Under the pieces are notes generated by a model. The model was not told where the DNA came from, made no database searches, and was given only the letters and a program-made list of their open reading frames with translations. From an uncultured Thermotogae bacterium (lineage in GTDB: Bacteria > Bipolaricaulota > Bipolaricaulia > UBA7950 > UBA9294): DNA of 64,000 nucleotides. Of this stretch, positions 2,644-14,878 are shown one piece after another. Location: the NCBI GenBank assembly GCA_964608345.1, contig CAZSNG010000006.1, positions 1,317 to 65,316 on the forward strand, read 5' to 3'. Within the stretch, counting starts at the first letter, position 1. The number at the start of each line of letters is the position of its first letter. Made by a program: the position numbers and the translations under genes.

Positions 2644-5130
2644 TCAGCGGCCCCGCCACGTCCTCATCGGCAGCTTTCGGACGATCAGGTCGAGCAGGAA
2701 GACGGCGAGCGCGGCAAGCAGGAGCGGAACGTGCAACGGATCATACTCGGTGGAGGTTCCGCCGGTCACGACGGGCAGATCCTCTGCGTTGCCGAGCATC
2801 GAACCCCTGGTTGCCTGGACGATCCGCTCGATCGCGGCGAGGTCCGATCCCAGGTTCCTGAGCTCGTCCGGATACGGGATGGTCAGCGGGATCGTGACGG
2901 AGCGTTGCCGAGTGTTGTCGATCAAGTGAAGCGCGTACCCGCCCTCCGCCGGCGTGGGGAACGTCGCGACGTATAGCCCGGGACCGCGCTGGTCGAGATC
3001 GAGGGTTGCTCCGTCAGGGAGCAGTTCAACCTCGAGGTCGAGGAAGTTGGCGAACGCGCCCGCCTCGTACGCATCGACAAGCAGTTCGGTCGTCTCGGGG
3101 CCTTCGACGATCGTCGGCGACAGGCCGATCGTCGACGTGAGGTACGGCTCGGTCGTGGCGAGGACATCGTCGAACAACGCGGAGAGGCCGGGCCACGCGA
3201 GCCATGCTTCGGAGCCGAGGCCCGCCAGATCGGTGTTCAGGACGGTTACGGCGCCAAGACCCAGGCGCCAGGTACTGACGACCGGGTCCTCTGAGACCCA
3301 GAGGGACGTGTCGGCGCTCGGTTTCGGATACGTCAGCACGTATCCGTCGAGCGGCGGGACATCCGGGATTGCCAGCTGATCGCGAAGCCGACCGTCCACA
3401 TCGGCGGGACCGTCGATGAACCGCCGCCGGCTGATGCGCTGCGTTGCCTGAATCGAGATTTGCGGAAGCAATGAGAAGTCATCGGCGCGGTAGAGGGTGC
3501 CTCCGCCAGCCTCGACGAGCGCGCTGAGAAGGCCGACGTTCATCGTCCGCCCAACGCCGATGGCCGAGAGGGTGACGTCGTCCAATCCCTGCAGGCGCCG
3601 GACGAGCCCGGCGTAGTTTCGTGGTTCGTCGACGGTCTTCCCATCGCTGATCAGCAGGATGTGTTTTGCCGGGACCTCGATCTCCTCGAGGCGATCGAGC
3701 GCTTCGACGATCGGGTAGTAGACGTCGGTTCCGCCGATCGCCTCCAGCTCGCGCAATGCGTAGTACAGCTCGGACGACTCGACCGGAGAGACCGGGACGA
3801 TCCAGTCTTGGTCGAGATTGAACGCGAGGATCCCGACGTGGGTCGTGGCATCGAGGAGGGCGGCGCTCGCGGCCGCAGCTTCCTTGAGAATCTCGATCTT
3901 CTCTACACCGCCGACCCTCGAACGCATGCTGGACGAGCGGTCGAGCACGTAGACGAGTGCCAACTGCGCTTCTCGCGACTTCTCGGGTAGGGTGTAGGAG
4001 ACGGGGAGCAATTCCTCGATTCCGCCGGCGCTGATCCCTCGCACCTCCTCTTCGCCTTCGATGACGAGGAGTCCGCCGCCGAGGTTGCGCACGAACGAGT
4101 CGATCGCGTCCAACTCGTCGACGGTCAGGGTCGCGAACGACAAGCCGGTCAGGATGAGTTGGCGATAGGTCGACAGGATCTCGAGCGACGGGATCGTCGC
4201 GGACGCCGTGAAGTCCACATCGAGCGACTCGAGGAGCCCGGGAACTGCCGTGCGACCGAGAGGGTCGACGACGAGAACGGACGGATGCTCGGTTGCCGTG
4301 ACCAACAGCGAGAGAGCGTCGTTGTCGGGAATCGGATCGTCCTGGGCCTTGACGATCGCCTGATACGTGTGAGCGACCGGCTCGGCGAACCGATCGTCGA
4401 CCGAGAAGCGCGTGTGTCCCTGTTGAAGCGTGATCTCATCGAACGTGACGAGATCGTCGTCGCGGTAGACCACGAGCGTGGCGTCGACGGATCGTGCGGA
4501 GACGATCTCGAGATCGATCGAGAAGGACCTCCCCACCGAGACCTGGCTCGGCCCGTGCATCGAGATGAGTGTGACGTCTGCGGGCGGCGGTGCTCCGACC
4601 GGTACGACCGAGATCGGGACCCCCGCCGTCTGCGATGCGCCGGCGGCGACGTCGGGATCGTCGGTGAAGCGGCCGTCGGTGATCAAGACGAACTGGTTCG
4701 CCGCACCTTCGGGCAGGACGGACAGGCCGAGCGAGACGGCGGCGTTGAGGTTCGTTGACGTGCGATCGAGCTCCGCCACGCCGAGGGGGATGGCGGACGA
4801 GCCGAGCGGGACGGCAAGCGACGCGGTCCTCGCGAACTCGATCGTGGCGAAGGTCGAGGCCGGGTACGCGGAGAGAAGCCGTTGGATCGCTTCTCGCGTC
4901 GAGTCATCCTCCGAGGTGAGGATGACGCTCGCCGAGCGATCGACGAGGAAGACGATGTTGTGTTCCTCCTTGACGCGGGCGACACGAGGGCCGGCGAGGG
5001 CGAGCACGACGAGCAGCAGCGCGATGGCTCGAAGAAGGGGGCGGCGCCTCTGCCGGATGGACAGCCAGACGAGCGCGGCGGCAATCGGCAGCGCGAAGAG
5101 CAGCAAGTACGGCGTCGCCAGCTGGATCAT
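2644..5130 (-). CDS. Membrane-anchored protein with two vWA domains and a central class-I GATase-like domain
   Basis: MIDAS motifs LVDRSAS and VLDRSSS, LITDG/LISDG, GGGLLVIEG..., LLPV; N- and C-terminal hydrophobic helices. Confidence 0.85.
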   Translation of the reverse strand: MIQLATPYLLLFALPIAAALVWLSIRQRRRPLLRAIALLLVVLALAGPRVARVKEEHNIVFLVDRSASVILTSEDDSTREAIQRLLSAYPASTFATIEFARTASLAVPLGSSAIPLGVAELDRTSTNLNAAVSLGLSVLPEGAANQFVLITDGRFTDDPDVAAGASQTAGVPISVVPVGAPPPADVTLISMHGPSQVSVGRSFSIDLEIVSARSVDATLVVYRDDDLVTFDEITLQQGHTRFSVDDRFAEPVAHTYQAIVKAQDDPIPDNDALSLLVTATEHPSVLVVDPLGRTAVPGLLESLDVDFTASATIPSLEILSTYRQLILTGLSFATLTVDELDAIDSFVRNLGGGLLVIEGEEEVRGISAGGIEELLPVSYTLPEKSREAQLALVYVLDRSSSMRSRVGGVEKIEILKEAAAASAALLDATTHVGILAFNLDQDWIVPVSPVESSELYYALRELEAIGGTDVYYPIVEALDRLEEIEVPAKHILLISDGKTVDEPRNYAGLVRRLQGLDDVTLSAIGVGRTMNVGLLSALVEAGGGTLYRADDFSLLPQISIQATQRISRRRFIDGPADVDGRLRDQLAIPDVPPLDGYVLTYPKPSADTSLWVSEDPVVSTWRLGLGAVTVLNTDLAGLGSEAWLAWPGLSALFDDVLATTEPYLTSTIGLSPTIVEGPETTELLVDAYEAGAFANFLDLEVELLPDGATLDLDQRGPGLYVATFPTPAEGGYALHLIDNTRQRSVTIPLTIPYPDELRNLGSDLAAIERIVQATRGSMLGNAEDLPVVTGGTSTEYDPLHVPLLLAALAVFLLDLIVRKLPMRTWRGR

Positions 5131-6905
5131 GGGGTCCTCCTCATCAGCCGCCGCCGGCCGGCGTGCAAGTACGCTTCCGCAAACAGCAGGACGATCGCCA
5201 GCCCCGCGGCGATCGGCCAGAGCGAGAGGAAGCGGACGGCGCTTCGTCCGTCCGTTCCCGCAGCAGAGTCTTCGCCGGTCGGTACCAGGAGCGCCGATTC
5301 CGCGGCGGGGACGTTGACGGCGATCGCGAAGGCGCCGCGGTCCGTGACGAGCGTGTGGAAGCCCGGCATGGTCGGCTGGAAGGTTGAGAGGCCGATCGGA
5401 ACGCTGATCGGGGCCTCCTGGGCGTCGTACAGCGCTTCGACCGTACCGCGGCCGGCCAGCGAGACCGCTTCGCCGACCTCGGCCGAGCGATATGACAGGT
5501 CGGAGGGCAGGCGAACCAGTCCCGAGAGGACGTTGCGGATCAACAGCGGGAAGTCGATGGTGATCGGCAGGTTGGTGTCGAGGATGTTCGGCGCGAGGTA
5601 GGTGACAGTGCGCGACTCGTCCTCGAACGTGACGAGGAGCGGGACGCCGTCGGACTCCAGAATGACCTGGGCGGACGACGGGAGCGACGCGGTCGGTGCC
5701 TCGCGGATGCGGAACGTCGTCGGGTCGACTCCGAGGAGGAGCGAATGATCCGGACGAGAGATGGCGATCTGCGGCGTTGGGAGCGACTCGCCCTGCTCCA
5801 GGAGGCCGTCGATGCCGCCGTGAACCAGCAAGATCGTGCCGGTCAGAGAGGACGGTGCGCGGGCGGCATGAACGATCGTGAGATCCGCCGCCTGCGGGGA
5901 GTCGACGAGGCGAATCGGAACGACGGCACGCAGCGCGGCCATCAGGTAGCGATTCTCCGTCCCGACCCAGTGGATCCGAACGTCGATCGGGCGATCGAGG
6001 GAGAAGAAGCGGAGGTTGTCTGCAGGGAACGCATCTCCCGGTTCGATCGACGCCGTGAACAGCGAGCCCCGGGAGTTCGGGAACTGAATCACGAACGTGT
6101 CGGCCGCCCCGGGCTCCAGGAGGACGCTGAGGGTGGTCTGGTTCTCGCGGTCGTCGATGCGGATCGTCACATCCTGATAGGAATCGCTGTCATTCAGCAC
6201 GGACGCCAGCGCGCTCACGCCTGCGCTCTCGGGGTTCTCGCGAACGGAGAAGCCGGTCACCGCGAGGTTGTCCTCGCCACCGACGAGGACCGACTCGAAC
6301 GAAGCGGGCAGGTCGGCGAACGCATGATCGGAAAGGACGACGACGCGCTCGAACTGCGAAGTCCCTCCGATGCTGCCGAGCAGGGCAAGAAGCATGTCCG
6401 GAGTTCCGTCGCCGTTCCAGGTGGGCTCGGAGCGAAGCAGCGCGGTCTGGAGATCGGCGCGGCCGTGCTCGGGCCTGGCGAGGATCTCCGGGTGGGTCGA
6501 GAGCTGGATCAGAGCGGTCGCCGCGGATGAGTAGCGGTCGAGAAGGTCGCGGGCTTCTTCGATCGCCCGTTCGTAGCGAGTCGTTCCATCCTCGGTGACC
6601 GTGCGCATGCTCGCGCTGCCGTCGAGGATCACGGCCAGGCCGGAGATGGACGTTGTGCGCGTTCGCAATGCAGGCTGCGCGAGGGCGGTCGACAGGGCGA
6701 CGAGGACTGCGATCTGGAGGAGGATGAGCGGATCGAGCTGCTGGCGGATCCGCGCCGCTCGGGACTGCGGATCGCCCGGCAACCCTTCCCAGAGGAAGAG
6801 CGCCGAGACCTCGCGCCGACGTTCACGCGCTCGCAGGAAGTGCAGCAGGAGGATCAGAAGCGACGCGAACAGGAGGTAGAAGGCGGACGGGTTCAGGAGC
6901 GTCAT
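5127..6905 (-). CDS. BatA-type N-terminal domain plus vWA membrane protein
   Basis: LLLHFLR...VSALFLW and ALSTALAQP (BatA signature), VILDGSASM (MIDAS), C-terminal TM with LLFAEAYL. Confidence 0.85.
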   Translation of the reverse strand: MTLLNPSAFYLLFASLLILLLHFLRARERRREVSALFLWEGLPGDPQSRAARIRQQLDPLILLQIAVLVALSTALAQPALRTRTTSISGLAVILDGSASMRTVTEDGTTRYERAIEEARDLLDRYSSAATALIQLSTHPEILARPEHGRADLQTALLRSEPTWNGDGTPDMLLALLGSIGGTSQFERVVVLSDHAFADLPASFESVLVGGEDNLAVTGFSVRENPESAGVSALASVLNDSDSYQDVTIRIDDRENQTTLSVLLEPGAADTFVIQFPNSRGSLFTASIEPGDAFPADNLRFFSLDRPIDVRIHWVGTENRYLMAALRAVVPIRLVDSPQAADLTIVHAARAPSSLTGTILLVHGGIDGLLEQGESLPTPQIAISRPDHSLLLGVDPTTFRIREAPTASLPSSAQVILESDGVPLLVTFEDESRTVTYLAPNILDTNLPITIDFPLLIRNVLSGLVRLPSDLSYRSAEVGEAVSLAGRGTVEALYDAQEAPISVPIGLSTFQPTMPGFHTLVTDRGAFAIAVNVPAAESALLVPTGEDSAAGTDGRSAVRFLSLWPIAAGLAIVLLFAEAYLHAGRRRLMRRTP

Positions 6906-7783
6906 CGGAGGATCCCTCCGTGGCGGAGATCCTCGTGCAGGAATCGCTCGATGGGGACGTCCGTCGTCGTCTGGAAGTACGGGATCCCGCGCTCGAACGA
7001 GAAGGCGCGAAGCCGTTCCCGGTTTGCCCGGATCCGCTCGGCGTACTCGTCGAGCGTCCGCTGCCCGATCGTGAGCGTGACGTGCTGGGACGACTCGACA
7101 TCAACGAGCCGCGTCGCGCCCGCGCTGTGCGGGACGACGTCATCGGGGTCGAGGATCTGTAGGAGGATCACCTCGTCGCCCCGATGGACGAGCCGCGCCA
7201 GACCGTCCTCGAAGTCGACGCCGGAGGCGAGGAAGTCGCTGATGAGGATCGTCAGCCCGCTCTCGTGCGTCTGGGCGAGGAACTCGAGTACCGCGGCATT
7301 GATCGACGTGCGCCCTCCCGGCTCGATGTCGTGGAGCAAACGAAGGACTCTCCCCATCTGGCCCATCCCGTGGCGCACGGACAGGCCGGGAATCAGCTGG
7401 TCGTTGAACGGGTACAGCCCGACGCGATCGAGGCCGCGGAGACCGAGGTAAGCCATCGCCGCGGCGAGGTGGGCGGCGTAGTACGCCTTGCTTGGAACGC
7501 CGATGCGCATCGAGGCGCTGAAGTCAAGCAGCAGGTAGACGGGCAGATCTGCCTCGTGCACGTATGTCTTCACCAACAGCCGGTCGAGCCTGCCGAACAC
7601 GTTCCAGTCGATCGTGCGGAAGTCATCGCCCGGCGTGTACGCGCGGTAGTCGGCAAACTCGAGGCTGACGCCGGCCCTCGGGGAGGCATGGAGCCCGGCG
7701 AGATGCCCCTTCCTTCGTCCCTTAACGATGAAACGAAGGTTCGACAGGCGTCGCAAGAAGGCTTCGTCGATGAACGTCGGCAT
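6902..7783 (-). CDS. DUF58 (vWA-like) protein
   Basis: GVSLEFADYRAYTPGDDFRTIDWNVFGR, LLDFSASM, ILISDF; ATG at 7783 overlaps the MoxR TAA (TAATG). Confidence 0.93.
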   Translation of the reverse strand: MPTFIDEAFLRRLSNLRFIVKGRRKGHLAGLHASPRAGVSLEFADYRAYTPGDDFRTIDWNVFGRLDRLLVKTYVHEADLPVYLLLDFSASMRIGVPSKAYYAAHLAAAMAYLGLRGLDRVGLYPFNDQLIPGLSVRHGMGQMGRVLRLLHDIEPGGRTSINAAVLEFLAQTHESGLTILISDFLASGVDFEDGLARLVHRGDEVILLQILDPDDVVPHSAGATRLVDVESSQHVTLTIGQRTLDEYAERIRANRERLRAFSFERGIPYFQTTTDVPIERFLHEDLRHGGILR

Positions 7784-8769
7784 TATGTGTGGGCGGGGAC
7801 GTGCTCCCACACGTCATCCAGGAGCTCGTCGACTGTGACCCCTTCGGCTTCGCCCTTGAAGTTCAGGACGATGCGGTGCGTCAGCGCGCTGTGGAACAGC
7901 TCTTGGATGTCCTCGCGGCGCACGTTCACCTGGCCCGCGAGGAACGCATGGGCCTTGGCGCCGTTGATCAGCGCGAGGGCGGCCCGGGGGCTGGCCCCGT
8001 ATTCGACGTACTCCACGATTCTCGCAGGAGCGTGTTCCGTGTTCGGGTGGGTGGCGAGTAGGAGACGCGCAACGTACTCGCGCAACCCCTGGCCGATCGG
8101 GATCTCGCGGACGACCCGCCTCGCCGTCAGGATGTCTGCGGCGGTCGCCGTCGGCTCGGGCAGGCGGATCCCTTCTCCTTCGGTGTTCCGCTCGGTGATC
8201 GTGACGAGCTCATCGAGGGACGGGAAGCGAACGTTCGCCTTCAGAAGGAAACGGTCGATCTGGGCCTCGGGGAGGGGATACGTGCCCTCCATCTCGATCG
8301 GGTTCTGGGTCGCCAGGACGATGTACGGCTCCTCGAGCGGGTATGTGTGGATCCCGACGGTGACGGTTCTCTCCTCCATCGCCTCGAGCAGCGCGGACTG
8401 GGTTTTCGGGGTCGCGCGGTTGATCTCGTCGGCGAGGATCACGTTGGCGAAGACGGGACCTTGAGAGAACGAGAATCGCCGATGCCCCGACTCCTCGGTG
8501 ATGATGTCGGTCCCGACGATGTCGGCGGGCATGAGATCCGGCGTGAACTGGATCCGCGAGAACTTCAGCCCGAGCGATGCGGCGAGCGTCCTGACGAGCA
8601 GCGTCTTGCCGAGTCCGGGGACGCCCTCGAGGATCAGATTTCCCCGGCAAAGGAGCGCGATCAGGGCGGCGCGGACGATCTCGCCGTGGCCGACGATCAC
8701 CTCCTCGATCGATGCCGTCAAGCGCCCGAATACCGTTTGCGCTACCTCCAGGTCCCGTTCGGTGATCAT
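7783..8769 (-). CDS. moxR: MoxR-family AAA+ ATPase
   Basis: LEGVPGLGKT, RIQFTPDLMPAD, LADEINRATPKTQSALLE, ATQNPIEMEGTYPLPEAQIDRF. Confidence 0.96.
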   Translation of the reverse strand: MITERDLEVAQTVFGRLTASIEEVIVGHGEIVRAALIALLCRGNLILEGVPGLGKTLLVRTLAASLGLKFSRIQFTPDLMPADIVGTDIITEESGHRRFSFSQGPVFANVILADEINRATPKTQSALLEAMEERTVTVGIHTYPLEEPYIVLATQNPIEMEGTYPLPEAQIDRFLLKANVRFPSLDELVTITERNTEGEGIRLPEPTATAADILTARRVVREIPIGQGLREYVARLLLATHPNTEHAPARIVEYVEYGASPRAALALINGAKAHAFLAGQVNVRREDIQELFHSALTHRIVLNFKGEAEGVTVDELLDDVWEHVPAHT

Positions 8770-10319
8770 GCTCCTCCTTCTGAAATCGCGTTGAAGTAGT
8801 CTCGAACGATCTCGATGGCCCCCTCGGGCACACCGCGCTCTCTGAGAATCGAGTCAATCCGATCAAAGCGCACCCGAAACGATGCGGCTTCGGAGTCGGT
8901 GCCAGGCAGCACCTCGATCGGAACACCCTCGGTGACGAACTCGCTGACGAAGTCCCCTTCGGATCCTATTCTTCCCTGCTCCTCTTCGCGGATGAACCCG
9001 ACCTCTCGCTCTTCGCCCTCACCGGTCGGGCCGCCGGCGCCGGCGGTCCCACCGAACGGATCCGGATCCTCGAAGCCGCGCTCACCGGCGGTGTCGGACG
9101 GACCGCCGAGCGATTCCTCGCCGTCTCCCTCCGAGCCGTCGGACTGGTCTCCACCGCCCGGTCCGCCGGGACCCGCGCCTTCGGCGCCGGCCTCGTCAGG
9201 TGTCTGATTGAACTCGTCCATCATGTCTTCGAGGCTCTGCTGGTCTCCCGGCATGGCAGTGCTCTGGGGGAGCCCATCCCCGCCCTGAGACTCACTTCCG
9301 CGGTTCTCTTCGTCGCCGAACTGATCGAGCAGCTGCTCAACGATCTCCTCGACTGTCCGGGACGGCGGCGGATTCACGAGTTCGTTGAGCCCTTCCTGAA
9401 GGCCGGGAGGAATAGCACCTTGATCGAGTTCGCGCTGCAGGTTCTCGAGCTCTTCTTCGGTCAGTTGCGGCGGCAGTTCGGACTCCGGAGCGTTCTCGAG
9501 GCGCTCCTGGATGCTCTCGAGGAGCTGAGAGATGGCGCGCATCGCTTCGCCCTGGATCCGGGCCAGGTCTTCGATGCCTTCGGGGGAGATCGGTACCAGG
9601 ACGGCTTCGTCGGGCGTCATCCCGGCGAGATCGCGCATGACGTCGTCCAGCGTCTCGCCCCGGCTGGGTGTGTCGAGTCCCGGCAAGGTACCCCCAGCAG
9701 CCTCCGGCTCGGTCTTGAGTGTCGTTGGCGCATCCACTTCCCCGACCGCCGATGGAGCGGCCGTCTCCTCGGCGGAGATCGAACCGCTCGGCGCGAGGGA
9801 TCGCTCCTCCACCGCTTCGAACGGTGATACCTGGAGCGCCGGGAGCGGGACGAACGCGAGGCCGACGGCAAGTGCGACGCAGCAGAGGCCGGCTGAGCCA
9901 CCAAGGAGCGTGCGTCTCCCGACCGGGAGTGCGGACTCCCACACCTGGGTCGCGGGGCTCACTTCTTCCTCGAGCCGCGTGCGGAAGACCGTCGCACCGG
10001 CGCGCTGCCGAATCTCATACAGCGAACTGAGACGGGCTCCCAGCCCGAGGATGTCGTCGAGCTGCAGCAGCAAATGCGGCATGCGTGGGCGCTTCCGGCG
10101 CCCGACCAGATACGCGAGGCCGGCGGCCAGGAACGGAGGTGTCGCGAACGCGGCGAGTGCCCAGTACGGGAACGGAATGCGGAGAAGGCGAACGGCAACC
10201 ATCGCGGCGACGGCTGCGGCGGCCGTTCCGCCCATCGCGATGCTCGCGAACGAGAGGCCCCTCAGAGAGCGTGCCCTGGAGTCAACGGACTTGAGGAAGC
10301 GGGAGAAGTCAAACGGCAT
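8766..10319 (-). CDS. Membrane protein with long acidic Gly/Glu-rich cytoplasmic tail (DUF4175-like, typical of MoxR clusters)
   Basis: Three N-terminal hydrophobic helices, low-complexity acidic region, C-terminal VPEGAIEIVRDYF motif; start overlaps upstream stop region. Confidence 0.7.
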   Translation of the reverse strand: MPFDFSRFLKSVDSRARSLRGLSFASIAMGGTAAAAVAAMVAVRLLRIPFPYWALAAFATPPFLAAGLAYLVGRRKRPRMPHLLLQLDDILGLGARLSSLYEIRQRAGATVFRTRLEEEVSPATQVWESALPVGRRTLLGGSAGLCCVALAVGLAFVPLPALQVSPFEAVEERSLAPSGSISAEETAAPSAVGEVDAPTTLKTEPEAAGGTLPGLDTPSRGETLDDVMRDLAGMTPDEAVLVPISPEGIEDLARIQGEAMRAISQLLESIQERLENAPESELPPQLTEEELENLQRELDQGAIPPGLQEGLNELVNPPPSRTVEEIVEQLLDQFGDEENRGSESQGGDGLPQSTAMPGDQQSLEDMMDEFNQTPDEAGAEGAGPGGPGGGDQSDGSEGDGEESLGGPSDTAGERGFEDPDPFGGTAGAGGPTGEGEEREVGFIREEEQGRIGSEGDFVSEFVTEGVPIEVLPGTDSEAASFRVRFDRIDSILRERGVPEGAIEIVRDYFNAISEGGA

Positions 10320-10980
10320 GGGTCCTCCTGAGCGAGCGGCGAAGGCCGAGGATCTGTGCGAAGACCAGCGCGACGAGGAAGGCGTAAGCCACGAGCAATT
10401 CGAGAGACGGTGCAGATTGGACGATGCGAAGCGCAGCGCCGAGCGGGCTGAGAAGCGTCACCGCCGACGGCACGTGGGGGACGAAACCCAGGCTCCACGG
10501 CACGAGGAGGACGAGGCCGAACAGCGCGTACTGAAGCATGAACGTGTGCGTCTGCCGAGCCACTCCCCACAAGGCGAGCCGGAGGGAGATCAGAGCGAAC
10601 ATGAACGATGCGAGCGTCGAATAGAGGACGAGGAGTGGCAGAGCCAGGTCGTGGCCGGGCAGGAGGGCACGGGCGAAGAAGAGGAGCGGGAGAACGACCA
10701 GCTGTCCGAACAGGATGTGCCATAGCAATCGCGGGAGCGTCTCCCATCTCAGGCGCTCCCACCTTGCCGCTGCGATGCCGCGGAACGTGCCGAGCAGCGC
10801 GATGAGCGTGAGATACGTCAGGTGAAACACGAACGGGGAAGGCTGCCAGCGCACGTCGATCAGCTGAGAGACGCGGCCGCCGGCCGGGATCGAGAAGAGC
10901 AGCCCTGTGGCGCACGCCAACAGGATGAGGAGATACCCTTGAACCGCGCTGTTGGAGAGGACCGACTCCTGCCTTCTCAA
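10309..10980 (-). CDS. Multi-pass membrane protein (ABC-2-permease-like hydrophobicity)
   Basis: About six TM segments; TTG start at 10980 overlaps the upstream TGA and follows GGGGAGG. Confidence 0.7.
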   Translation of the reverse strand: MRRQESVLSNSAVQGYLLILLACATGLLFSIPAGGRVSQLIDVRWQPSPFVFHLTYLTLIALLGTFRGIAAARWERLRWETLPRLLWHILFGQLVVLPLLFFARALLPGHDLALPLLVLYSTLASFMFALISLRLALWGVARQTHTFMLQYALFGLVLLVPWSLGFVPHVPSAVTLLSPLGAALRIVQSAPSLELLVAYAFLVALVFAQILGLRRSLRRTHAV

Positions 10981-12713
10981 GAGACCTCCCCCCTGACGAC
11001 GTACACGTCGAGATGTCTCACTTTCCGGCCTGCTTCCGTGGCAACGTCGTCCCTCGGGACCGAGAGCCCGACGAACCACATGCCGGTCTGGAAAGGCAAT
11101 TCCTCGATCAGGTGCTGAAGGACAAGAGAGGCCGTCCCGTCGGCTTCTCGCACCAGGGAGCCCAGCGTCGCTGAAGATGCCTGCTCATATGTGTGCGTAC
11201 CGTTCGATACGGGCGGCACACGAACGCCCTGCCCATCGGCGATCAGCCAGCAGTCGACGAGCTCCACATCGGCGCGGTAGTCGAGGACGGCGTGGCCGCT
11301 GGCCCTGTCGACAGAGAGCCGCACGAGCGACGGCGCGGTAGCGTAGGCGTAGAACGTCTTCTGCCCGATCTCGGCGGCGGACGCGATGACGCGTCCCGGC
11401 TCCGCAGTGTGCGCATAGGCGCGAGGCGTCGCCGTCGGTCGGGGCATTGGGTGCGGAGTGACAGTTCCCGACGGCGCTTGGAGGGGGATTGCCTCACCGC
11501 CGAGGGCGTACGGAAGCGGGTCGGTCTCTGTGGAGTAGAAGCTCGACGAAACATGATCAATACCGAACGACGTTGCAAGGTGTAAGACAGTGTTGGAGAC
11601 ATATATCGACGATACCTGTTTCGTGTTGTTTGCATAGAAACCGGACCAAACGCAGAGAGCCGCAAAGACCACGGCGGCGGTGGCCACGCCGGCCCACCGG
11701 TGCCTGCGGCCGACGAAAACGACCGCCCCCAGGGCGATCGTAGTCAGGGCGATGAGAAGCAGCGCGGAACCATGCGTCGGGCGATCGACCGGAAGGGATC
11801 CGAGCAGCGCCTCGGAAACAGCCGTCATCGACAGGCGCGTGGCGCCGGGAACCGCTTCCCTGGCCCGCTCGAACTCCGCCCCAGTGAGGTCGGTCGGGCG
11901 AACGGCCACGACGGCGACGTGCCCGGCACCGTACGGCCAACCGAAGACAAGCGGTAGATCGCCGCGGGAAACGGGCCTGGACGTCCCCGGCTTCATCGTT
12001 CCGGTGAGCGCGAGGGTGCCGTCCTCGTGAGTGGTAAGCGACGGATTCGACAGCGGTAGGAGCTGCCGAAGAGCGGGCGAATCGAAGCGGAAGTAGTCCG
12101 GTCCGCTGGCAATGACGAGGGAACCGCCGGCGAGGACCCACTGGGCGATCGCGGGCCACGCCTCCTGTGGTGGGGGCTCCGAAATCCAGAGCGAGTGGAC
12201 CGCGTCGTACGCCCACCACTCGGACGGCAGTTCGGCGGCGGTGACCGGTGTCTCCTCCTCGTCGAGGCTGTGCGGCAGGGCGCCGTAGACGAGCGGGAAC
12301 GGATCGAGATGACGCGTCGCCCGGAGGAGAATCGACGTCTCTGCGAGGCTCGTTCCGTCCTCGGCAAGAAGTGCGACATCGATCGGGTTCAGCGGCTCGT
12401 ACATCGGGATGGCCGTACTGAAGGCGCCATCCGTGGAAACGACGAACCCTAGATCCTGTCGGATAGTGCTGGTGTCGCGCCACTCGTTGCCGAGCACGTG
12501 CGTGACGAGAAGGCGGGCAGTCAGATCGTGGTCGAATCCGCGGATTCGCACGCGAAGCGGCGCGTAACGTTCGGGGACGACGTGCCCGTTGAAACCGATT
12601 TGGACGTCAATGGACGGAGCCGCTCGCGCCGGCACGACCACGAGTGCGAGAAGAGCCGATGCGAAGCAGAGCCATAAGGTGCCTCGAAGATTGGGGTTCC
12701 GCCCGGTCGTCAT
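10977..12713 (-). CDS. Exported/membrane protein of the MoxR-vWA cluster, with a GATase-like segment
   Basis: Signal peptide ending ARA-APS, GFNGHVVPERYAP, WVLAGGSLVI, YGAGHVAV, two internal TM helices. Confidence 0.7.
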   Translation of the reverse strand: MTTGRNPNLRGTLWLCFASALLALVVVPARAAPSIDVQIGFNGHVVPERYAPLRVRIRGFDHDLTARLLVTHVLGNEWRDTSTIRQDLGFVVSTDGAFSTAIPMYEPLNPIDVALLAEDGTSLAETSILLRATRHLDPFPLVYGALPHSLDEEETPVTAAELPSEWWAYDAVHSLWISEPPPQEAWPAIAQWVLAGGSLVIASGPDYFRFDSPALRQLLPLSNPSLTTHEDGTLALTGTMKPGTSRPVSRGDLPLVFGWPYGAGHVAVVAVRPTDLTGAEFERAREAVPGATRLSMTAVSEALLGSLPVDRPTHGSALLLIALTTIALGAVVFVGRRHRWAGVATAAVVFAALCVWSGFYANNTKQVSSIYVSNTVLHLATSFGIDHVSSSFYSTETDPLPYALGGEAIPLQAPSGTVTPHPMPRPTATPRAYAHTAEPGRVIASAAEIGQKTFYAYATAPSLVRLSVDRASGHAVLDYRADVELVDCWLIADGQGVRVPPVSNGTHTYEQASSATLGSLVREADGTASLVLQHLIEELPFQTGMWFVGLSVPRDDVATEAGRKVRHLDVYVVRGEVS

Positions 12714-12809: not shown

Positions 12810-13427
12810 CTACTGGGGGAGCTTCTCCACGGCGAGCGCGGCGTCCTCACTGAGCACGTCGGCGTAGATCTGCGTCGTTTGAATCGAGCGGTGGCCGAGC
12901 TGCTTCTGGACGAGCCGGAGGTTGAAATCCGACGCGCGGTATAGGAGCGACGCGTACGTGTGGCGACAGGAGTGGATCGAGAACCGCTTGGGGATGCCGA
13001 CGACATCAGCGTGCTTGCGGAAGATTCGGTAGACGGCCGACCGGGTCAGCGAACCGCCGCGGGACGAGACGAAGACGGCCGCGCGGCCCGCGGTCGACTG
13101 ACCGAGTGACTCCTTCCATGAGATGAACTGCGCGAGGTGGTCGCGCAGGGCGGATCCGATGCGGACCCCTCTCTTCTTGCCACCCTTGCCGTCTCGGACG
13201 ATCAGCGAGGAGTGCGCTTGGTCGAGGATGACGTCGCGAAGCTGGAGTGCACAGATCTCCGAGACGCGGAGTCCCGAATCGAGCGCGACGTGGAGGATCG
13301 CCCAGTCCCTAGCCGGATCGGTTCGGCCGTCTGGGGACGGCTCGTCAGCGAGACGCTGGCAGTAGGTCTTGAGCAACTGCACCTGGTCCGGTGTCAGGAA
13401 GTCTTCGTGAGTCACTTCGAGCGGCAT
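12810..13427 (-). CDS. Compact tyrosine recombinase, catalytic domain only (FimB/FimE-like size)
   Basis: Complete catalytic set: SGLRVSE (R), GKGGK (K), HSCRH (HxxR), LGH, TTQIY (Y); only about 40 aa precede RDWAIL, so no core-binding domain; AAGGAGGAG RBS. Confidence 0.93.
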   Translation of the reverse strand: MPLEVTHEDFLTPDQVQLLKTYCQRLADEPSPDGRTDPARDWAILHVALDSGLRVSEICALQLRDVILDQAHSSLIVRDGKGGKKRGVRIGSALRDHLAQFISWKESLGQSTAGRAAVFVSSRGGSLTRSAVYRIFRKHADVVGIPKRFSIHSCRHTYASLLYRASDFNLRLVQKQLGHRSIQTTQIYADVLSEDAALAVEKLPQ

Positions 13428-13486
13428 GGCTCCTCCTTCGTCCGGGGAGGAGCGTAGCGAGGCGCCCGCGATCGGGATGGGACAAG

Positions 13487-13518
13487 TTTCGCAACAAAAG
13501 GTTACTTTTGTTGCGAAA
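13487..13518. repeat. Perfect 14-bp inverted repeat, putative recombinase binding/crossover site or operator
   Basis: TTTCGCAACAAAAG-GTTA-CTTTTGTTGCGAAA, AT-rich in a GC-rich genome, 60 nt upstream of the recombinase start. The repeat is directly visible; its function is inferred. Confidence 0.8.
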
Positions 13519-13665
13519 TCGGACCGTGGATCGCGAAAAGGGCCTAGGGAACTGCATCTAGGAGCAATCGGGAACGGGCGTGCGAGTCGCAGGGTGTGGC
13601 GCGATGTTCTGGTGAGGGCCGATTCTGGGGTCGGCGGACTGCTTGGAGGCCGTTTATGGGGCCTC

Positions 13666-14439
13666 TCATTCGATCGAGTATCTCTGGACGATCTTTTCCT
13701 CGTCCCCTACGACGTTTGCTTCGACTTCGACGTACTTCTCGATCGTCGAGCGCTCGAGTTTCTCCCGAAGGAGGTTGTCGAGCTGAAAGATGCCCGCCGA
13801 GTTCGACATCTCGATCGAGATCCTGATCGGGCGTTCCCCGCCTGACTCGAGGTGAACCTTCCGGATCGCCATGGCCGAGACCGAGTGAATGGTCGGGACG
13901 CCGGTCTCGAATGGGATCCGTGCGCGCCCCGACTCCATGTCGAGCGCGTCAGCGACCTTCACCACGCCGGCTTCGATGGTGAGGGTCTCGATCTTGCGCT
14001 GGTGGGCGAAGATGGCGTGGAGCACCTCGCCCTTGAGGAGGGCGATGGTGCGCTGGTCGTAGATCGTGCCGAGCAAGCGATCGACCAGCGGAGCGGCCAG
14101 TATGAGCGACAGGAGCTCGTGGTCGTGGCGGTGGATCACGTGCCCGATGTCGTGCAGGGCGCAGGCGAGGACGACGACGACCTCGGCGTCGTCGTTGGTC
14201 AGCCCGTGATTCTCGACGACGCTCGGCGTGACTCCTGCGTTCATCAGGAGACGCAGCAGCTTCAGGCCGATGTTCGTCATAATGCGGACGTGGACCGGTC
14301 CGTGGTCGTTGATTCCCATCCGGTCGATTGCCGTGATGTTCGAGCCGGACCAAAGCGCATCGAGCTCGACCGACGAATCGATCTGCGCGACGACGTGCTT
14401 GAGCTGCTCATTCTGGTTGCATGGGACGTTAAGGGGCAT
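13666..14439 (-). CDS. HD-domain phosphohydrolase (COG3294/MJ0778-like)
   Basis: INDHGPVHVRI, CALHDIGHVIHRHDHE, VKVADALDM motifs. Confidence 0.88.
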   Translation of the reverse strand: MPLNVPCNQNEQLKHVVAQIDSSVELDALWSGSNITAIDRMGINDHGPVHVRIMTNIGLKLLRLLMNAGVTPSVVENHGLTNDDAEVVVVLACALHDIGHVIHRHDHELLSLILAAPLVDRLLGTIYDQRTIALLKGEVLHAIFAHQRKIETLTIEAGVVKVADALDMESGRARIPFETGVPTIHSVSAMAIRKVHLESGGERPIRISIEMSNSAGIFQLDNLLREKLERSTIEKYVEVEANVVGDEEKIVQRYSIE

Positions 14440-14878
14440 CGATCTCCTCTCTTAGGAATCGCCACCAGGGCGCTGCTTCGTGGGGAGTGTCGGCCTGGGC
14501 TTGAAGGCGCTGCTCGAGGGTGGCGACGTGTTGACGCAGGAAGGCGAGTTCCTCACGGAGGGACGCGATCAACAGGGCGGTTTGATCCGGTTTTGCATCG
14601 CGCGGCACGAAACGCGGCGAAACCGATGTGGTCGAATGGTTCTGGTTATATACCTTTGCGCGCAAGACTTCGCTGGCCTCGGTCATGGTTAACCCGCTAT
14701 CGTGCAACTCCTGCAATCGCCGAAGCAGATCGGCACCGTCGTCGGCGAGCAGGATCTGGTTGTTGGGGCCGCGGCGAGTGTGCGGGAGGAGCAGATCCTT
14801 GATCGCCTCGATGCGATTGCGGACCTGGTTTGCGCTGGTGAGGCCGAGCGACTGCCGCAGACTGTTGATTGAGTGCAT
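14429..14878 (-). CDS. MerR-like HTH plus coiled-coil protein with C-terminal PWWRF motif (RacA/DUF3967-like architecture)
   Basis: N-terminal HSINSLRQSLGLTSANQVRNR, RRGPNNQILL wing, LQELHDSGLTMTEA; heptad LREELAFLRQHVATLEQRL; GGGGGA RBS. Confidence 0.7.
   Translation of the reverse strand: MHSINSLRQSLGLTSANQVRNRIEAIKDLLLPHTRRGPNNQILLADDGADLLRRLQELHDSGLTMTEASEVLRAKVYNQNHSTTSVSPRFVPRDAKPDQTALLIASLREELAFLRQHVATLEQRLQAQADTPHEAAPWWRFLREEIDAP

Follow-up and report, generated by a model that had tools for sequence, protein, structure and literature searches.

A catalytic-domain-only tyrosine recombinase and the adjoining 32-bp palindrome in Bipolaricaulota: most likely an undescribed, stripped-down relative of Xer/dif systems

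A tyrosine recombinase of 205 residues (rec205) and a perfect 32-base-pair (bp) palindrome just upstream of its gene were analysed in a 64,000-nucleotide stretch of contig CAZSNG010000006.1 (the window, always meant at this full length), whose organism is assigned to Candidatus Bipolaricaulota (Acetothermia/OP1) by the relatives of the rec205 protein. The two most likely constitute a reduced and hitherto undescribed relative of the Xer/dif systems, which untangle joined chromosomes. With about evenly balanced confidence, we favor the reading that palindrome and rec205 form a vertically inherited chromosomal module of the single-recombinase Xer type, which would resolve replicon multimers, probably with autoregulation and probably with help from p149, a MerR-like protein encoded nearby. 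We arrived at this reading because the palindrome has a 13+6+13 geometry, is conserved over its full length around a constrained and polar center and changes symmetrically in the most divergent lineage (L060), because it is nearly unique and adjoins the recombinase gene, and because copies of it occur on phage contigs. Sequence anatomy, conservation, linkage, near-uniqueness, fold and genomic position were analysed directly. A full-text literature search returned no paper linking Bipolaricaulota or Acetothermia to a Xer system; a classification preprint mentions simple recombinases of candidate phyla that form a 'Cand' subgroup close to Xer, with neither the architecture of rec205 nor the palindrome.

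The palindrome (TTTCGCAACAAAAGGTTACTTTTGTTGCGAAA) was recovered by repeat search as two arms of 14 nucleotides (nt) each (13487-13500 and 13505-13518), which are 100% complementary and separated by a 4-nt gap. An earlier reading made from the letters alone (the sequence-only reading) had described a perfect AT-rich repeat of 13-bp arms around a 6-bp spacer upstream of the recombinase; the repeat search confirmed it, 14+4+14 and 13+6+13 with a 6-bp G-NNNN-C overlap being alternative parses of the same 32 bp. From the near end of the palindrome to the rec205 ATG downstream of it the distance is 59 nt, and the AT-rich sequence of the palindrome is embedded in a genome of 65% guanine plus cytosine (GC). 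By our own calculation, chance would produce about 0.002 perfect 14+14 repeats with a short spacer per 64 kb. As single-stranded DNA the palindrome folds at -15.2 kcal/mol, versus -4.2 +/- 1.9 kcal/mol for shuffled sequences (z = -6). The geometry of tyrosine recombinase sites, as in lox, FRT and dif, fits this arrangement of 13+6+13 = 32 bp, and the palindrome has the format of a Xer/dif site, namely two inverted arms of 11-13 bp and a center of 6-8 bp.

A scan of one genome per species yielded 66 Bipolaricaulota loci with a rec205 orthologue. With the arms written as TCGCAACAAAAG-N4-CTTTTGTTGCGA and a 24-nt core written as GCAACAAAAG-N4-CTTTTGTTGC, the exact core was present in 63 of the 66 loci and was found with one mismatch each in two others (L036 and L054). 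The left end of the palindrome lies 84-150 nt before the orthologue's ATG in 65 of the 66 genomes, at protein identities of 55-89%, and the remaining genome carries a symmetric variant. The orthologues thus clearly keep the palindrome upstream of the recombinase gene, contrary to the refuting outcome named in the sequence-only reading, that they would lack it. A logo of 142 distinct host sequences, written in gene orientation, gave the consensus T-n-T-C-GCAACAAAAG-[T R C C]-CTTTTGTTGC-G-A-n-A. Thirteen of the 14 arm positions are conserved; those outside the selected core reach 84-100%, the 13th position excepted. Conservation covers 28 of the 32 bp, with the half-site blocks two helical turns apart. 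The central T-R-C-C is variable yet polar, at about 1 bit per position, and 16 different central hexamers occur among the 142 host sites. Sequence outside the palindrome carries 0-0.2 bit, with the exception of three motifs. Invariant arms around a variable center argue for sequence-specific recognition by two identical protein subunits and not for a purely structural hairpin.

The single strongly deviating locus is that of L060 (1 of 66, the most divergent lineage), where the site at 3803-3830 reads TTTTAACAAAAG-GTAT-CTTATGTTAAAA and lies about 200 nt upstream of the gene. The outer 3-4 positions are changed symmetrically in both arms. In the same genome rec205 (R123, R134, K175 and others) and p149 (Q41 and others) are altered at otherwise invariant residues; as both proteins changed alongside the site, the co-variation does not single out which of them reads the palindrome. 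The variant site together with the changed rec205 and p149 amounts to a natural specificity-switch pair. A separate irregularity was seen in L009 (about 3600-4000), where the palindrome is 400 nt from the gene and a run of N together with tandem copies of CCGTCCGAGGCGAAGCGAGGAGGGACTCT lies between them; this could reflect an error of assembly or else a genuine tandem repeat that takes in the ribosome-binding region.

Rec205 belongs to the tyrosine recombinase superfamily. Pfam PF00589 matches residues 10-192 (E = 1.7e-32, 113 bits versus a cut-off of 27.1), and no Pfam match to an N-terminal SAM-like or core-binding domain was obtained. The sequence-only reading had listed an intact R-K-HxxR-H-Y set, and the corresponding residues R54, K81/K85, H152, R155, H179 and Y188 proved invariant in an alignment of 29 orthologues. 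An AGGAGG ribosome-binding site precedes the gene start and all orthologues keep MPLE.T.EDF as their N-terminus, which fixes the start codon and leaves no room for a hidden upstream core-binding domain. The orthologues in the 66 genomes are 55-90% identical and almost all 204-212 residues long; the best 120 homologues listed from a collection of 5.8 billion proteins are nearly all exactly 205 residues long and 72-100% identical.

The position of rec205 within the superfamily was examined with curated models, profiles and a structure prediction. NCBIfam ranks XerC, XerD, XerA and XerS at E = 1e-36 to 1e-30, with FimB/E-type invertases far lower at 1e-13. A profile search of the PDB returned archaeal XerA (5hxy) first (E = 4.7e-24), followed by another XerA, XerD, IntI4 and XerH. 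The AlphaFold2 (AF2) model (predicted local distance difference test score, pLDDT, 80; predicted template modeling score, pTM, 0.80) superposes on the XerA, IntI4 and XerH catalytic domains with TMq values of 0.67-0.74, and also on lambda Int and Cre; in Foldseek, 5hxy was matched with E = 8e-10 and TMq 0.72 and XerH with TMq 0.74. The catalytic domain is therefore closest to XerA, XerD and XerH, in line with the label "Xer-like" given in the sequence-only reading. Integron integrase was considered and set aside: TIGR02249 scored 75 bits versus a cut-off of 265, with only the C-terminal part aligning, and the repeat search showed no attC-like repeats near rec205.

The same reading had called the enzyme unusually small, which stands in comparison with known Xer proteins and fails as a general statement: FimB and FimE are a precedent, and when 1.84 billion cluster representatives were searched exhaustively, 57 clusters reached E <= 1e-30, the majority 200-250 residues long and aligning end to end. 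Recombinases of this short type, lacking a core-binding domain, therefore make up a large family that is as yet uncharacterised. Many proteins of 530-750 residues (P0261, P0277, P0298 and P0330 among them) match rec205 in two separate stretches and look like tandem fusions of two short recombinase domains.

Further copies of the site were sought at three scales. Within the window no second match to a 13-nt arm was found with 2 mismatches allowed (shuffle expectation 0.21), as the sequence-only reading had reported, and 1.33 Mb of related host loci yielded no second palindrome when up to 4 mismatches were allowed. In metagenomes, a scan that used the 20 specified bases as query gave at least 120 loci. 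Among the 120 matches listed, 102 are at the rec205 locus: 96 have the site center 68-142 nt from the start of a rec205 orthologue and 6 are truncated loci of hosts in which the HD gene flanks the site on its other side. The other 18 listed loci fall into about a dozen families that are phage-like, plasmid-like or unassignable. Non-locus copies among the listed matches are far below one per genome, and since a second chromosomal copy per genome would roughly double the match count, the site appears near-unique and tied to rec205. The search for further copies thus left it essentially confined to this locus.

Rec205 is single-copy, at one locus in each of the 66 species genomes and with the same synteny. 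The gene order across the phylum is diacylglycerol kinase, MutL (opposite strand), p149, HD gene, palindrome, rec205 and p578/p256/p517. The conservation of rec205 exceeds that of the neighboring MutL at the same loci, which together with the fixed housekeeping synteny indicates that rec205 is a core chromosomal gene and not a mobile element. The family of p149 is confined to Bipolaricaulota, and p149 lies upstream of palindrome and rec205 in every locus with enough flank. The HD gene and the end of the p149 gene overlap. Nearly all loci have the HD gene at this syntenic position, and it is absent from the lineage of L100/L123/L143/L162/L192. In this lineage there is also no MutL nearby, and p149 stands directly upstream of palindrome and rec205; its retention after the loss of HD gene and MutL links p149 to both site and gene. 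The earlier description of a single-protein system is doubtful for this reason.

The p149 protein consists of a very conserved N-terminal part of 77 residues, a variable disordered linker and a leucine-zipper-like helix. Its AF2 model shows a winged helix-turn-helix and a long helix, with the long disordered linker between them, and matches CadR, CueR, NmlR, GlnR and RacA (Foldseek E = 2.6e-3 and above, probability 1.0), the DNA-binding domain reaching TMt 0.75-0.78. Pfam MerR_1 remained below its cut-off (15 versus 21.6 bits) in 26 of 29 members. Judging from the predicted fold and the linkage, p149 is a candidate for a partner of the recombinase or for the reader of the palindrome itself. 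The tail of p149 (WW..LREE.DA) is also conserved, and no Pfam match reaches threshold.

From these features we infer how the favored module could work, that is, binding, cleavage positions, dimer resolution, the part played by p149 and autoregulation. One rec205 monomer would bind each 13-14-bp arm and Tyr188 would cut at the borders of the 6-bp G-NNNN-C overlap. Two site copies, carried by a chromosome dimer or by a multimer of a phage or plasmid, would synapse and exchange strands in two steps to give replicon monomers, with the asymmetric T-R-C-C center providing site polarity. As rec205 has no core-binding domain, site recognition and assembly would probably be helped by the A-tracts beside the overlap and by a second factor on the flanking motifs, for which the linked MerR-like p149 is the best candidate. 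Since the site is just upstream of the rec205 start, its occupancy would probably autoregulate expression. The system would probably be free of the terminus- and FtsK-based control of bacterial XerCD, as is archaeal XerA.

The flanking motifs are those in which the logo rises outside the palindrome (Table 1). TGTCC, beside the gene-side arm, is conserved to 94% (T), 94% (G), 100% (T), 100% (C) and 71% (C), and no mirror of it is present in the logo on the other side of the palindrome. A -10-like hexamer is kept as gcTAc..T at +56 to +63 of the logo, and the promoter to which we assign it is putative. On the side away from the gene, a motif 15-35 nt from the palindrome is looser than TGTCC and takes the form GTTCCyrTCTGCrTT in the Bipolaricaulis lineage (L031/L037/L039/L041/L043). 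Both the TGTCC and the GTTCC...TTT-type motifs are non-palindromic.

Adjacency of recombinase gene and site is a documented hallmark of XerS/difSL and XerH/difH (PMC5357621), so that the sequence-only reading was right to place xerS beside difSL. Like XerS/difSL of streptococci and lactococci and XerH/difH of Helicobacter and Campylobacter, the present pair comprises one recombinase encoded beside an apparently single chromosomal site; like XerS and XerH, rec205 is a core, vertically inherited gene, and as in difSL and difH the arms of the palindrome end in AAAA/TTTT at the center. The arms of difSL and difH end in this way next to central regions of 11 bp and 6-10 bp, respectively (PMC5357621); this bears out the AAAA and TTTT inner arms of the AAAA-N6-TTTT core that the sequence-only reading had given for them. 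XerS and XerH differ from rec205 in having 354-362 residues with a core-binding domain, where rec205 has 205 without one, and they are FtsK-dependent. In difSL and difH the arms are imperfect and the position is at the terminus, whereas the palindrome has perfect arms and no skew switch within -13/+50 kb.

Archaeal XerA, the best match to rec205 in both sequence and structure (5hxy), is a single recombinase that acts without FtsK; unlike rec205, it has two domains, and the host of rec205 is bacterial. Archaeal xerA genes are generally not next to dif. In Sulfolobus, dif maps to the SSO1161-1162 intergenic region, away from the termination zones, and the system is FtsK-independent (PMC3020120), so that a non-terminus position does not disqualify the palindrome. 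XerL/dif of Legionellales, likewise a single-recombinase system specific to its lineage, came to notice only through a mobile element that carries a mimic of dif (PMC9765430). The LME-1 attachment site that revealed Legionella dif is invariably near the replication terminus, and the system was proven genetically (PMC9765430). As there, mobile DNA (here phage contigs) carries a copy of the host site; in contrast to XerL/dif, the palindrome is off the skew switch, no integrated element was seen and the module is a predicted one.

In size and in having the catalytic domain only, rec205 resembles FimB and FimE (about 200 residues), a precedent for functional enzymes without a core-binding domain. 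FimB and FimE depend on accessory DNA-bending proteins. They act on two short inverted repeats flanking an invertible promoter, whereas here a single site and no invertible segment were found. The perfect 13-bp inverted arms and the asymmetric spacer recall loxP (34 bp in total), whose recombinase Cre, in contrast to rec205, has a large N-terminal clamp domain and is 14-16% identical to it. The conserved motif flanking the core on a single side, together with the DNA-binding protein linked to it, recalls cer/psi with the accessory proteins ArgR/PepA/ArcA (PMC5357621); unlike cer/psi and the resolvases borne by plasmids and phages, the present module is chromosomal and phylum-wide.

Two phage contigs carry the site. 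L200, which is identical to metagenome locus L127, has a gene for a large terminase subunit. On L201 there are genes for a primase, for both the small and the large subunit of the terminase and for a recombinase of the phage itself, which has 200-222 residues and is 33% identical to rec205. Both carry TCGCAACAAAAG...CTTTTGTTGCG and have GTTCCyrTCTGCrTT 12-13 nt from the palindrome, as in hosts of the Bipolaricaulis lineage. The distal motif of L200 agrees with that of host L039 at 14 of 15 positions and at the same offset (p about 5e-4 by our own estimate, corrected for multiple comparisons), and the ungapped left flank is identical to the host at 25 of 45 positions (null 18.3 +/- 1.7, maximum 24). 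In L201 the palindrome is 1 kb from the phage's own recombinase gene with an opposite-strand open reading frame (ORF) in between, so that it is no promoter operator there. Relatives of the L201 recombinase (45-62% identity, on 6 other viral contigs) have no palindrome within 4 kb. The clade of this phage therefore does not use the palindrome as its general site, as fits a copied host site. A scan for further phages with the distal motif and one arm gave only L200, L201 and L210, and L210 was rejected as a chance match inside a T7-like RNA polymerase gene.

Several observations weigh against the favored module. The two-domain Xer architecture is lacking, as the core-binding domain is missing from rec205, and the scores for XerC (125.9 bits), XerD (121.2), XerA (120.1) and XerS (103.1) stay far below the NCBIfam cut-offs of 335, 330, 220 and 267. 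By curated scores rec205 is outside the XerC, XerD, XerA, XerS and FimB/E families; it probably acts in the manner of a single-recombinase Xer module, yet does not qualify for classification as one. The linked p149, as a dimeric DNA-binding protein, could itself recognise the palindrome. Raw counts in viral contigs are no evidence: the palindrome core gave 3 matches in IMG/VR, and three control palindromes of matched composition gave 2, 0 and 0. The central hexamers of the phage copies have none in common with the 142 host sites, and no recombination product, hybrid site, integrated element or prophage-flanking duplicate was seen in about 170 host loci. The plasmid- or phage-like contig L140 carries the palindrome (at 2650) and a p149 homologue (4393-4809, hmmsearch E = 1.6e-11) and has no recombinase in its 5.1 kb, and L167 (8165, 8495) and L096 (8980, 9953) contain a second, degenerate palindrome 0.3-1 kb away with a different center.

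The chromosomal position weighs in the same direction. Bacterial dif sites are normally at the GC-skew switch. To the left of the site the window has a skew of +0.064 and to the right one of +0.040; the skew is positive in 28 of 32 bins of 2 kb and does not change sign at the palindrome over the 13 kb on the left and the 50 kb on the right. In 40 genomes the skews of the two flanks were correlated (r = 0.85) and had the same sign in 34, with the terminus pattern (positive, then negative) in 2. Genes are on the minus strand at 1-15 kb, plus at 23-50 kb and minus at 50-64 kb, and the sequence-only reading's remark that local gene orientation does not suggest a terminus holds. The skew remains positive through both orientation switches and so looks replication-related, which suggests that the whole window is on one replichore and that any terminus is more than 50 kb to the right, with 13 kb visible on the left. 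The palindrome is therefore off the skew switch; its position may still be terminus-proximal. CP070725.1, the only complete chromosome, has the locus at 902-923 kb of 1,726 kb, or 53% of a record on which the origin is not placed, and the skew within +/-10 kb is too weak to read. A replication origin at about 15-23 kb, where gene orientation diverges, was rejected since there is no change of skew sign. About half of the genes in the window would be head-on to replication.

The main and serious rival, although a rather unlikely one in our estimate, is that the palindrome is a transcriptional operator of rec205 and possibly of the downstream operon, bound by p149 or by rec205 as a repressor, with the true substrates of the recombinase elsewhere or on mobile DNA. 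The palindrome is between the conserved distal motif and the -10-like hexamer, a short way before the ATG, and the winged helix and coiled coil of p149, resembling MerR, GlnR and RacA, are the architecture of dimeric palindrome binders. The persistence of p149 beside site and gene, the combination of palindrome and p149 homologue on L140 and the degenerate second copies in L167 and L096, which with their different centers resemble repeated operators more than recombination partners, all suit an operator, and the changes of both proteins in L060 favor neither as the reader. MerR-family operators are about 18-23 bp long, and the conservation of the palindrome over 28 bp exceeds what is typical of them. 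Moreover, the palindrome is not between a -35 and a -10 element with a 19-20-bp spacer, no copy precedes the p149 gene itself, the central 4 nt are constrained and polar, and on L201 a distance of 1 kb with an opposite-strand ORF separates the site from any recombinase gene. We know of no precedent for a phage copying the operator of a single gene. Copying of a host recombination site by phages and mobile elements has precedents in cer, psi, CTX and LME-1 (PMC5357621, PMC9765430), which also speaks against an operator.

A more specific proposal, which we regard as unlikely, is a split two-protein form of multimer resolution in which a p149 dimer would take the place of the core-binding domain missing from the XerA-like rec205 by recognising or shaping the palindrome and its flanking motifs, the two proteins acting off the terminus and without FtsK, replacing XerCD and being exploited by phages.

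The remaining explanations are less likely than an operator. It is very unlikely that the palindrome is mainly an attachment site for mobile elements and rec205 a domesticated or resident integrase with no segregation role. Two phage contigs with a host-like site and flanking motif, matches of rec205 to PHROG integrase families and the location of its closest relatives outside the phylum on plasmid-like, IS-associated or multi-copy elements would agree with attachment. Selection for a host function is, however, implied by a single-copy gene among housekeeping genes that is more conserved than MutL, and there is no integrated element and no attL/attR-like duplicate in the roughly 170 host loci; in addition, the phage overlaps differ from all sampled host overlaps and the relatives of the L201 recombinase are without the palindrome.

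The relatives outside Bipolaricaulota were inspected at the locus level. Thirteen Desulfobacterota loci with relatives of 35-44% identity are multi-copy and have no palindrome; these recombinases (L067-L079) share a conserved N-terminal extension of about 35 residues ending in ...NIDGIK and are probably part of a mobile element. P0244, a 43%-identical relative of 205 residues, is on a ParA/RepA plasmid-like contig; such plasmids are where multimer resolvases are usually found, which speaks for the favored module. P0243 is next to an IS605 TnpB gene and P0242 has only a terminator hairpin upstream. No palindrome was found near P0242, P0243 or P0244, the nearest relatives outside the phylum.

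We consider it still more improbable that the palindrome recombines with a second site far away to bring about a programmed inversion or deletion, in the way of FimB/FimE-like phase variation. Rec205 shares the FimB/FimE architecture, but no second copy was found in the window (2 mismatches per arm) or in the 1.33 Mb of host loci (4 mismatches), non-locus copies are rare among the metagenome matches listed, the invertase models NF007371 and NF007370 scored only 49.3 and 46.9 bits versus cut-offs of 222 and 221, and the synteny is fixed, with no orientation variants among the 66 genomes. As no partner site was found, the invertase option raised in the sequence-only reading has no support.

We give almost no credence to a hairpin that acts without a dedicated protein (as terminator of the HD gene, leader-RNA structure or cruciform): the stable 14-bp stem and the preserved pairing in L060 would fit it, but the stem is constant and the loop variable in the 142 sequences, the opposite of structural covariation, the stem is AT-rich in a GC-rich genome, and neither an RNA family nor a terminator was detected. 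Specifically, Rfam with permissive filters gave no match at 13300-13800, and a promoter and terminator scan of 13380-13720 gave no full sigma-70 match and no terminator. A terminator role was rejected on the empty scan and on the lack of a T-run after the stem, and a protelomerase target was rejected as the center is not palindromic.

If the favored Xer-type module is correct, an uncultured phylum known almost only from metagenomes would gain an identified chromosome-maintenance system, and Xer-type recombination on a 32-bp lox-like site would work without a core-binding clamp domain. To our knowledge, this domain is used by all characterised Xer, Cre and lambda-type enzymes. The question is then raised how a catalytic-domain-only enzyme attains site specificity, to which the linked MerR-like p149 is a candidate answer. 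A compact system of a 618-bp gene and a 32-bp site with perfectly symmetric arms would be of practical interest as a recombination tool. If the palindrome is an operator only, it would be a tightly conserved regulatory site of a conserved orphan recombinase, mainly of interest to specialists of the phylum.

Table 1. Features around the recombinase gene in the window.
Feature	Position	Strand	Basis
Rec205, catalytic-domain-only tyrosine recombinase, 205 residues	12810..13427	-	PF00589
TACGCT, -10-like hexamer (TAc..T), about 25 nt before the start codon	13451..13456	-	logo
Asymmetric TGTCC motif, 2 nt past the gene-side arm	13480..13484	-	logo +30 to +34
32-bp palindrome, proposed core recombination site	13487..13518		perfect inverted repeat
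Conserved distal motif, beyond the palindrome as seen from the gene (here GTTCCCTAGGCCCTTTTCG)	13533..13553	-	partly conserved across lineages
HD-domain phosphohydrolase, context, membership in the system uncertain	13666..14439	-	PF01966
p149, MerR-like winged-helix protein with C-terminal coiled coil	14429..14878	-	AF2 fold match

In the window, p578/p256/p517 are followed by a MoxR-DUF58-BatA-VWA cluster and then by dnaX. The genes at 2644-12713 on the minus strand, directly downstream of rec205, encode p578, p256 and p517 (no Pfam matches), a MoxR AAA ATPase, DUF58, BatA/VWA and VWA proteins; being on the same strand as rec205, they may be co-transcribed with the recombinase. In L192, the gene upstream of p149 (6603-7856) encodes a 417-residue protein with the cysteine pairs CDEC, CWIC and CRHC...CDHC, which by eye resembles an archaeal-type Pus10 tRNA pseudouridine synthase. 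On the phage- or plasmid-like contigs L140, L167, L190 (1935) and L096, the orphan palindromes adjoin O-like replication-initiator genes.

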